From the IMG/VR virus record IMGVR_UViG_2718218100_000013: a DNA stretch of 9,449 nt. One strand, given 5' to 3'. Made by a program: the position numbers and the translations under genes. Below the pieces are notes generated by a model, which had not been told where the DNA came from, made no database searches, and was given only the letters and a program-made list of their open reading frames with translations. This document shows, piece by piece, positions 174 through 230 of the stretch (position 1 is its first letter; the number at the start of each line of letters is the position of its first letter). Source of the stretch: a virus. Taxonomy: Duplodnaviria; Heunggongvirae; Uroviricota; Caudoviricetes.

Positions 174-230
174 ATTAACTACACCATTAACTACACCGTT
201 TCACGAACAATATCGAACAACCACGAACAA
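174..230. repeat. Two tandem direct-repeat blocks: ATTAACTACACC x2 (174-197) and a 10-bp unit ending CGAACAA x3 (201-230)
   Basis: Read directly from the sequence: a perfect 12-bp tandem duplication followed by three tandem 10-bp units with one helical turn periodicity. Lies in AT-rich non-coding DNA. Confidence 0.55.

Follow-up and report, generated by a model that had tools for sequence, protein, structure and literature searches.

Excisionase sites usually lie on one arm of the attachment site, which in lambda, KplE1 and P4 is the integrase-proximal arm. The operators of RDF proteins consist of direct repeats one helix turn apart that are bound cooperatively, and three of these repeats are needed (PMC7498355). 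For the dual-purpose excisionases 186 Apl, lambda Xis and P2 Cox the operators are short direct repeats 10-11 bp apart with at least three adjacent copies; they occur at att sites as well as at promoters and are found between face-to-face switch promoters. The IntS and TorI sites of KplE1 (CPS-53)/HK620 were mapped experimentally (PMC2951348). The attL of KplE1 is composed, in this order, of the core, GTTCG, GTCCG, a GTTCG/GTTCG/GATCG array at an exact 10-bp period, the tandem IntS arm sites GGGTAAAAAGT GGATAAAATAA and the intS ATG, and its attR contains the 12-bp tandem pair GGGTAAAATAGC GGGTAAAATATT. In the GenBank record of P4 (NC_001609) a tandem 12-bp 'attP arm sequence repeat' is annotated at 3942-3965, 16 bp from the int ATG. 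This int-side pair is followed by CGGACAA/CGGAAGA/AGGACGA at a 10-bp period, a second tandem pair occupies 4151-4174 on the other arm and the core lies at 4078-4097.

A similar arrangement has been described for one group of Gram-negative PICIs. In the HE-PICIs the motif tgTGTATTGCa (tgTGTATTGCantgTGTATTGCa) is doubled with a 12-bp period and is located 81 and 132 bp from the attP centre; its authors left the binder undecided and reported the motif in 2023 as one of HE-PICIs only, absent from fis PICIs (PMC10111431). The paper (PMC10111431) makes no mention of phased 7-mers. Gram-negative PICIs have the small protein AlpA as their master activator. AlpA of EcCICFT073 is an activator of its own promoter, and its expression by itself is enough to cause excision of the element, which depends on int and proceeds without activation of Pint (PMC6092414).

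Here we present the analysis of a stretch of 9,449 nucleotides (the window) with a block of two classes of direct repeats close to one of its ends. We conclude that a PICI-type satellite of ~9.6 kb ends here and that the block at 174-240 is probably a protein-binding module of its integrase-distal att arm, comprising putative integrase sites (12-mers) and putative AlpA sites (7-mers).

The satellite and its insertion site

All genes of the window lie on the minus strand. Starting from the end that carries the repeats we find a capsid-family gene (979-1902), the gene of a small terminase (TerS, Terminase_2; 2065-2553), a D5-type primase gene (3769-5517), a DUF4222 gene (5514-5813), alpA (7140-7364) and int (8226-9449), with the int ATG being the final triplet of the window. 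AlpA is a 74-aa winged-helix protein of the AlpA family (Pfam PF05930, E = 3.4e-16). Its identity to TorI amounts to 31% (pairwise E = 3e-5), and it matches the solved AlpA-family structure 8c3t with E = 1.3e-7. The int gene codes for a 407-aa P4-family tyrosine integrase (Pfam PF13356 and PF00589), whose N-terminal Arm-DNA-bind_3 domain covers residues 8-95 (PF13356, E = 2.1e-16); no solved structure matched the integrase by sequence. Genes for int, alpA and primase are co-directional, the element measures about 10 kb (~9.6 kb between the two cores), and it contains some head and terminase genes and no tail or lysis genes. The same gene set, oriented in one direction, forms the layout of Gram-negative PICIs (PMC6092414, PMC10111431). 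Judged by its gene content the element is a Gram-negative PICI-type phage satellite.

The window represents one strand of an E. coli chromosome and its first base lies directly upstream of the clpS ATG. Positions 1-93 are host DNA upstream of clpS, identified by their identity to the empty site in K-12. The K-12 sequence matches window 1-102, then diverges, and resumes ~180 bp past the int ATG, after the integrase-side core. Of 5426 complete E. coli genomes, 5424 matched window 1-106, and the element itself was present in only 37. The satellite has thus inserted at the 3' end of yljB, 97 bp upstream of clpS.

The comparison of the empty site with the two junctions places the putative 7-bp crossover (overlap) segment, AACTATC, at window 94-100. 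The junction copies read TGATAGATAACTATCATTTAT (window 86-106) and TGATAAATAACTATCATCTAT (L003 11118-11138), and the mismatches between them bracket ATAACTATCAT at window 92-102. The crossover segment overlaps the yljB stop codon and yljB is intact on the integrase side. On either side of the segment we propose a core-type integrase site. The putative host-side site, TGATAGAT at 86-93, was recognised by its inverted-repeat pattern; the putative element-side site, ATTTATAA at 101-108, was read from the sequence, and together with TGATAAAT of the other arm it makes up an imperfect inverted repeat. The reconstructed attB is then TGATAGAT-AACTATC-ATCTATCG and the reconstructed attP TGATAAAT-AACTATC-ATTTATAA. 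A relative inserted at the roxA site has a cleaner core, TGATAAAA-TATGTCC-TTTTATCA. An IHF consensus scan of the reconstructed attP returned a single weak candidate, AATCAATGAAATG at 109-121 on the minus strand, which shows one mismatch to WATCAANNNNTTR and lies between the core and the 12-mers.

The repeat block at 174-240

Read directly, window 172-240 is aaATTAACTACACC ATTAACTACACC gtttCA CGAACAA tat CGAACAA cca CGAACAA aga TCAACAC. An earlier note on this DNA had described a perfect 12-bp tandem duplication followed by three tandem 10-bp units ending in CGAACAA, located at the far end of the element, and all of this was borne out. Two copies of ATTAACTACACC, with the core ACTACAC, occupy 174-197 on the plus strand (Tandem Repeats Finder: 12-bp unit, 2.0 copies, 100% matches). 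The 7-mer CGAACAA follows on the same strand at 204-210, 214-220 and 224-230 with an exact 10-bp period, and to these three we can add a degenerate fourth unit that had been missed, TCAACAC at 234-240 (plus strand), which is in phase with the others. Tandem Repeats Finder reported the 10-bp-period array at 202-230 and a 20-bp version of it that extends to 239. In the direction of int the 7-mer reads TTGTTCG. The helical phasing that the note had claimed for all of these repeats applies to the 10-bp units only: the DNA helix has ~10.5 bp per turn and the 12-bp pair is therefore not helically phased. As to the location, window 1-100 is host DNA, the repeats begin 77 bp inside the crossover centre, the 12-mers spanning 77-100 bp from it, and the block extends from 77 to 143 bp inside the integrase-distal end.

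We compared these patterns with shuffled sequences. A perfect 12-bp tandem occurred in 1 of 300 dinucleotide-preserving shuffles of the window, and three 7-mers at exact 10-bp spacing occurred in none of 300. For ACTACACC we counted two copies in the window with 0.15 expected. The bare count of CGAACAA is ordinary, as at least three copies were also seen in 44 of 200 shuffles, and the significance of the 7-mers therefore lies in their spacing.

An ORF at 139-336 spans the repeats; it had no Pfam match and was not counted as a gene. A search of the whole window against Rfam gave no match either. In the literature we found the repeat sequence in no relevant paper, and we found no paper on the arm-type sites of P4-like integrases.

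A second module on the integrase-proximal arm

The earlier note had proposed to compare the DNA beyond both edges of the window, and this comparison locates the block in the integrase-distal att arm and reveals a second copy in the proximal arm. The second module has the same orientation and is found immediately beyond the window edge, 23 bp upstream of the int start codon (12-mer pair at L003 10974-10997 within the flank L003 10951-11140). It reads ATTAACTACACC ATTGACTACACC gtgcat CGTACAA ggg CGAACTG tga CGAACAA ggg CGAACAA; about 55 bp further on, CGAACAC cca CGAACAC is found, followed by the core. Four copies of ACTACACC and five of CGAACAA are present in the whole 12.45-kb locus; every one of them belongs to one of the two att arms, and all are on one strand. 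Under the convention used for lambda and KplE1 the integrase-distal arm is attR in the chromosome, and it forms one arm of attP once the element is excised.

The geometry of the two modules is constant. On both arms a 6-bp gap separates the 12-mer pair from the first 7-mer. The distance from the centre of the 24-bp block to the centre of the crossover is 143.5 bp on the integrase side and 88.5 bp on the far side, and for the yljB, roxA and tqsA site types we measured 143.5 bp on the integrase arm and 88.5-89.5 bp on the far arm.

In order to study the conservation of the module we scanned viral contigs for the doubled 12-mer, without the 7-mers in the search pattern, and obtained 56 loci. A scan of genome contigs with the integrase yielded only two loci, of which one could be used. 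Together, the E. coli records and the viral contigs supplied 44 distinct fragments of arms. Among the 11 distinct far arms of the yljB lineage only 1 of the 28 columns of the 7-mer units is variable, compared to 2 of 12 spacer columns, 2 of 6 gap columns and 43 of 70 columns in the flanks. For the roxA lineage the numbers of variable columns are 5/28 in the units and 56/70 in the flanks.

Further relatives were reached via the integrase protein and not via the motif. The integrase of L069 is 68% identical to that of the window and its arm contains three copies of AACTGACCACAC. The corresponding values are 64% for L073 (AACTGACCTCAC, two copies), 62% for L070 (CCACTGACCGCA, two copies), 54% for the fis PICI L071 (ACTGACTGCAC, two copies), 53% for the Pectobacterium fis PICI L075 (CACTGACTACAC, two copies) and 54% for L074 (ATTAACTACACC/A). 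In all six of these elements the 12-bp-period repeats adjoin 7-mers phased at 10 bp, and the cores of the 12-mers form the family A-C-[T/C]-[A/G/T]-C-A-C. In the fis PICI both arms carry the module, and 7-mer arrays on both arms were observed in the window element and in its roxA, tqsA and fis relatives. The repeats were found in every relative examined; their absence from related elements was what the earlier note had named as speaking against a binding function.

The two modules of ~70 bp each are clearly homologous, and the block might accordingly be read as what remains of a duplicated integrase-proximal arm, neutral and with no present function. We regard this as highly improbable: the spacers between the motifs have diverged between the two arms and the motifs were kept, over 11-18 distinct variants the 7-mer columns vary far less than the flanks do, and the far-arm module persists with its fixed geometry down to an integrase identity of 54%.

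Comparison with known recombination sites

The window element shares with P4, a satellite phage whose excisionase is Vis, the co-oriented tandem 12-bp pairs on both arms, and the arm-binding domains of the two integrases belong to the same family. The distances are similar: the int-side pair lies 16 bp from the int ATG in P4 and 23 bp here, and, as measured from the core centre, the pairs of P4 are at ~134 and ~75 bp and those of the window element at 143.5 and 88.5 bp. In sequence the repeats are not alike (ATGCCCCC in P4, ACTACAC here), and the far arm of P4 is without phased units, unlike that of the window element. Furthermore P4 has an extra inverted copy at the start of int, and the element described here is PICI-type and not P4-like.

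The agreement with KplE1 extends to the order of the sites, which is identical on the integrase side and includes the two near-core sites. In the window element two of the integrase-arm 7-mers are situated 19-29 bp from the crossover, like the TorI sites I1 and I2 of KplE1, and the orientation of the TorI motif GTTCG relative to int is that of TTGTTCG in the window. IntS carries Arm-DNA-bind_3 and thus the same domain set as the window integrase, yet the two proteins are only 21% identical, and the KplE1 arm-site sequence GGGTAAAA is unlike the 12-mer of the window. The far arm of KplE1 is without TorI-type sites, again unlike the window element. In KplE1 the sites overlap the mapped int promoter, whereas here the integrase-proximal arm showed no overlapping sigma-70-type int promoter in a consensus scan, so that an autoregulation in the style of KplE1 is unsupported in the window element. 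The one clear difference from both P4 and KplE1 is the presence of phased 7-mers on both arms. In other respects the locus is unremarkable among P4/KplE1-type recombination sites and has the features expected of the lambda/P4 type.

With the doubled motif of the HE-PICIs the 12-mers have in common the co-oriented copies, the fixed distances, the orientation relative to int and the class of element, Gram-negative PICIs in both cases. Read in the direction of int the window 12-mer is GGTGTAGTTAAT and shares GTGTA.T with the HE-PICI motif, although the motif sequence and the exact distances differ from those in the window. Contrary to the report that such a motif is confined to HE-PICIs, the fis PICIs L071 and L075 and elements of the cf-PICI type carry a doubled motif of their own.

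The 7-mers resemble the operators of directionality factors. With units at 204, 214, 224 and 234 the array contains at least three direct repeats spaced by one turn, as RDF operators do, and the same spacing and number of adjacent copies are seen for Apl, Xis and Cox. As with the operators of those three proteins, the arrays of the relatives occur at att sites and at promoters. There are, however, three differences from the Apl, Xis and Cox systems. The protein encoded here is a winged helix of the AlpA/Vis/TorI type and belongs to a different family, the arrays of the relatives precede alpA and the capsid operon instead of lying between face-to-face switch promoters, and the arrays here are found on both att arms.

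Proposed assignment of the repeats to proteins

On the basis of these comparisons we propose that the 7-mers are candidate operators of the AlpA-family winged-helix protein, acting as excisionase/activator, and that the 12-mers are candidate arm-type sites of the N-terminal Arm-DNA-bind_3 domain of the integrase. Arm-type integrase sites had been suggested in the earlier note for the block as a whole. The suggestion agrees well with the 12-mers, which are present in both att arms, and less with the 7-mers, which behave like AlpA operators.

The 7-mers are assigned to AlpA because they vary with the AlpA allele, because they also form arrays at promoters and because AlpA is the sole DNA-binding regulator common to all these elements. 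Three pairs of elements, natural recombinants in which the two repeat classes part company, illustrate the first point. The AlpA proteins of the window and of L069 are 96% identical and have an identical putative recognition helix; the 7-mers of L069 (CAAACAA/CGAACAA/CGAACAA) are of the window type, with an integrase N-domain that is only 60% identical and with different 12-mers. Between the window and L006 the situation is reversed. The beta-sheet segment of the integrase, GNLSVRHST[N/S]GLLTWYFTYR, is the same but for one residue and the 12-mers are the same, and AlpA is 67% identical, with VCRTTRYELEKKG in the window vs LSRTCRYRLEKAG in L006. Here the 7-mers differ, being GAAACAA/GGAACAA/GACACAA in L006 (GRAACAA type) vs CGAACAA in the window. 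Finally, L006 and L064 have the same AlpA and the same 7-mers, and the integrase strand VRHST of L006 is replaced by VQYLT in L064, in which 3 of the 4 12-mer half-sites are of the AGTG type (AGTGACTACACC). Across the set five AlpA types pair with five 7-mer types.

Phased 7-mer arrays of the same type as in the arms were detected upstream of alpA in L006, L064, L070 and L074 and upstream of the capsid operon in L006 (7864), L064 (5055) and L069 (16831). Shuffled loci contained no phased 7-mer triples. Outside the att arms no 12-mers were found, and they are absent from the regions upstream of alpA and of the capsid operon. For the window itself a position-weight scan found no other triple 7-mer array (0.035 expected per shuffle), and the only partial array near alpA is a pair of CGAAC at 7378/7388. 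The arrays that the relatives have upstream of alpA and of the late operon are thus unconfirmed for the window element. There are also two reasons for caution in reading the covariation. The cases are few and both arms, int and alpA lie within ~2.5 kb in the circular form, so linked co-inheritance could yield part of it. In addition, the late-operon arrays are nearly identical in two AlpA lineages, and the allele specificity of AlpA may therefore be looser than the comparison of the arms implies.

The 12-mers were assigned to the integrase by elimination and precedent. Their sequence is independent of the AlpA, replication and packaging modules. It changes together with the integrase N-domain in L064, L069, L070, L071 and L073, though these cases are few and phylogenetically linked, and L074 has 12-mers of the window type despite an integrase that is only 54% identical, which means that the 12-mers do not follow the divergence of the integrase in a simple manner.

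Lambda Int binds three adjacent P' sites, and it is conceivable that both repeat classes are arm-type sites of the integrase and that AlpA is only a transcription factor acting elsewhere. Both classes occur on both arms, as arm-type sites do and as excisionase sites, usually confined to one arm, do not. The 12-mers and 7-mers, when read directly, also share a loose AAC.A...C pattern. We nevertheless consider this explanation unlikely. The 7-mers remain constant where the N-domain and the 12-mers change (L069 vs the window, L064 vs L006), they also form arrays ahead of alpA and the capsid operon, places where the integrase has no known role, and the two 7-mers 19-29 bp from the crossover resemble the TorI sites I1 and I2.

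The roles of the two proteins could also be exchanged, with AlpA bound to the 12-mers and the integrase to the 7-mers. Tandem direct repeats would fit either protein, and the authors of the HE-PICI motif left both binders open. This assignment is very unlikely in our view, as L069 combines an AlpA of the window type with different 12-mers and as the 12-mers are missing from promoter regions even though AlpA was found experimentally to activate its own promoter. Moreover, the 12-bp period does not correspond to the one-turn spacing of excisionase filaments, and the equivalents of the 12-mers in P4 and KplE1 are assigned to the integrase.

The remaining explanation is concerned with replication and packaging. 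The earlier note had named binding sites of an initiator or of a packaging protein as options, and under these options the D5/P4-alpha-like primase would recognise the repeats as origin iterons, or the small terminase would recognise them as a pac/cos site. The element does encode a primase and a small terminase, the block is at the end of the element, which is sometimes the place of cos sites, and TGTTC is common to TTGTTCG and TGTTCACC, the type I iteron of P4. Several observations make both options extremely doubtful. The arms of L006 and L063 are identical despite different replication and head modules: L006 has a DUF927 primase together with an HK97-type capsid, protease, portal, HNH, P27-type TerS and TerL, and L063 has a RepA-type helicase and a capsid and TerS unlike those of L006. 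The window, with its D5 primase and Terminase_2 TerS, keeps the same 12-mers as these two. As the arms are alike across swapped modules, the repeats follow the int-alpA block and not replication or packaging. The module is furthermore duplicated at fixed distances around the crossover, and likelier origin iterons are located at 3525-3699, downstream of the primase gene. The resemblance to the P4 type I iteron, which had been noticed as a partial match, was rejected, since only TGTTC is shared and since the P4 iterons lie in ori and crr, apart from the att-arm repeats, and the block described here lies in the att arms.

Proposed mechanism and implications

If the 12-mers are bound by the integrase and the 7-mers by AlpA, recombination could proceed as follows. 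The excised attP would offer four 12-mer half-sites, at about -143.5 and +88.5 bp, for the four protomers of the recombining tetramer, and each protomer would bridge one arm site and one core site. AlpA molecules would line up head to tail along the 7-mers, all on one helix face, and would bend the arm in the manner of Xis, TorI, Apl and Vis, and the bending driven by AlpA may decide in which direction recombination runs. At promoters AlpA would use arrays of this kind as well.

It is tempting to extend this model beyond the present locus, and we do so tentatively, as we regard the extension as a possibility of slightly less than even standing. The doubled 12-bp arm repeat would be general to the integrase clade of Gram-negative PICIs and reach back to P4. 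AlpA-type arrays would be present on both arms in that clade, though not in P4 or KplE1, and in relatives also in the control regions of alpA and of the late operon. One small protein could then build symmetric filaments and couple excision to gene activation. What is new compared to the known systems is modest and consists of the doubled motif beyond the HE-PICIs and of the arrays on both arms and at the promoters of relatives. A motif that had been regarded as specific to HE-PICIs is hereby extended to the wider PICI integrase clade.

The analysis defines the exact ends and the putative crossover for a satellite that is common in Shiga-toxin-producing E. coli (O157:H7, O103 and O121), and it provides candidate binding sites of the satellite integrase and of AlpA that can be tested. 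If the 7-mers are indeed AlpA operators, they would give the first sequence handle on the recognition of DNA by AlpA and on the triggering of excision. One metagenome contig, L018, runs from an integrated copy of the element into the predicted attP junction, and this junction thus does occur naturally, either in a tandem copy or in a circular form.

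Phased arrays in related elements

In cf-PICI relatives we observed arrays of GAACAA-type 7-mers, each with three to six units at a 10-bp period. The arrays lie at positions 7864-7890 and 14123-14149 of L006, at 5055-5081 and 11607-11653 of L064 and at 16831-16857 of L069. Their locations, upstream of the capsid operon or in the interval from int to alpA, suggest AlpA-dependent promoters at these arrays. Within the window no triple 7-mer array of the GAACAA type was detected outside the att arm. Phage P4 carries CGGACAA, CGGAAGA and AGGACGA at a 10-bp period in its int-proximal arm (L072 3966-4010), and the Salmonella PICI L074 has CGGACAA and CGGACGA both in its int-proximal arm and upstream of alpA. 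The units of these two elements may be Vis/AlpA operators of a common type.

A G+C-rich hairpin followed by seven Ts occupies window 7366-7400, immediately before the alpA start codon, and reads CGTCCTCGTTCGGCAACGTTCGAGGACG TTTTTTT ATG in the direction of alpA. A role as terminator or attenuator, with AlpA acting on it, is possible. The hairpin contains two GTTCG units spaced by 10 bp. An equivalent hairpin is present in both fis PICIs, with units of the CGAACAG/TGAACGA type in L071 and the more degenerate TGAACCA and CAATCGA in the Pectobacterium element L075.

Sites in the far arm and beside the capsid and primase genes

A promoter scan reported TTGACG, 16 nt and CATAGT on the minus strand at window 136-163, a promoter-like site facing outward to the crossover and clpS. 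This match is no better than chance (3 found vs 2.3 expected in the scan). Among the far arms of the yljB lineage, the relatives inserted at the same site, the majority retain the TTGAC part. In the excised circle such a promoter would read over attP, the joined arms and core, into int; promoters that read across attP into int have been described in certain ICEs whose integrases are of the P4 type.

Window 240-978, a stretch of 740 bp that separates the repeat block from the capsid gene, contains an 88-nt duplication, of which the two copies (314-401 and 851-938) are 95% identical. Part of the stretch is conserved at positions 320-1020 of the cf-PICI L006. It may hold a cis site, for packaging or for another function. 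The stretch has no annotated gene and is overlapped by mechanical ORFs of at most 107 aa. It is composed of repeated units, including palindromes (for example CCCGATATGGTGATCCCCATATCGGG) and a short hairpin that occurs about six times, each time followed by a GAAGAATCAAYGGGTTAGGC-type box.

The short tandem repeats ACCTCCTCT, GGTAGAGGG and TAGCCCTCTACC are located at window 3525-3699, directly downstream of the primase gene. The replication origin of Gram-negative PICIs has been reported just downstream of this gene.

Insertion site and neighbouring DNA

The junction copies lie at window 86-106 and at 11118-11138 of L003, the locus record that holds the DNA beyond int. The satellite is inserted at the very 3' end of yljB, a small gene, and 97 bp upstream of the ATG of clpS. 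On the integrase side yljB retains its stop codon, and clpS is cut off from anything more than 97 bp upstream.

The IMG/VR metagenome contig L018 (10780 bp) begins within clpS, contains a single copy of the element and stops in an int-arm/core/far-arm junction (attP). This order therefore implies that the element was inserted twice in tandem or that integrated and circular forms were mixed.

In O157:H7 FRIK2455 a second integrase-bearing island lies directly across clpS-clpA (L001 1-8853, beyond clpA), with genes for a tyrosine recombinase, YfjI-family and KAP NTPase genes and an IS1 remnant.
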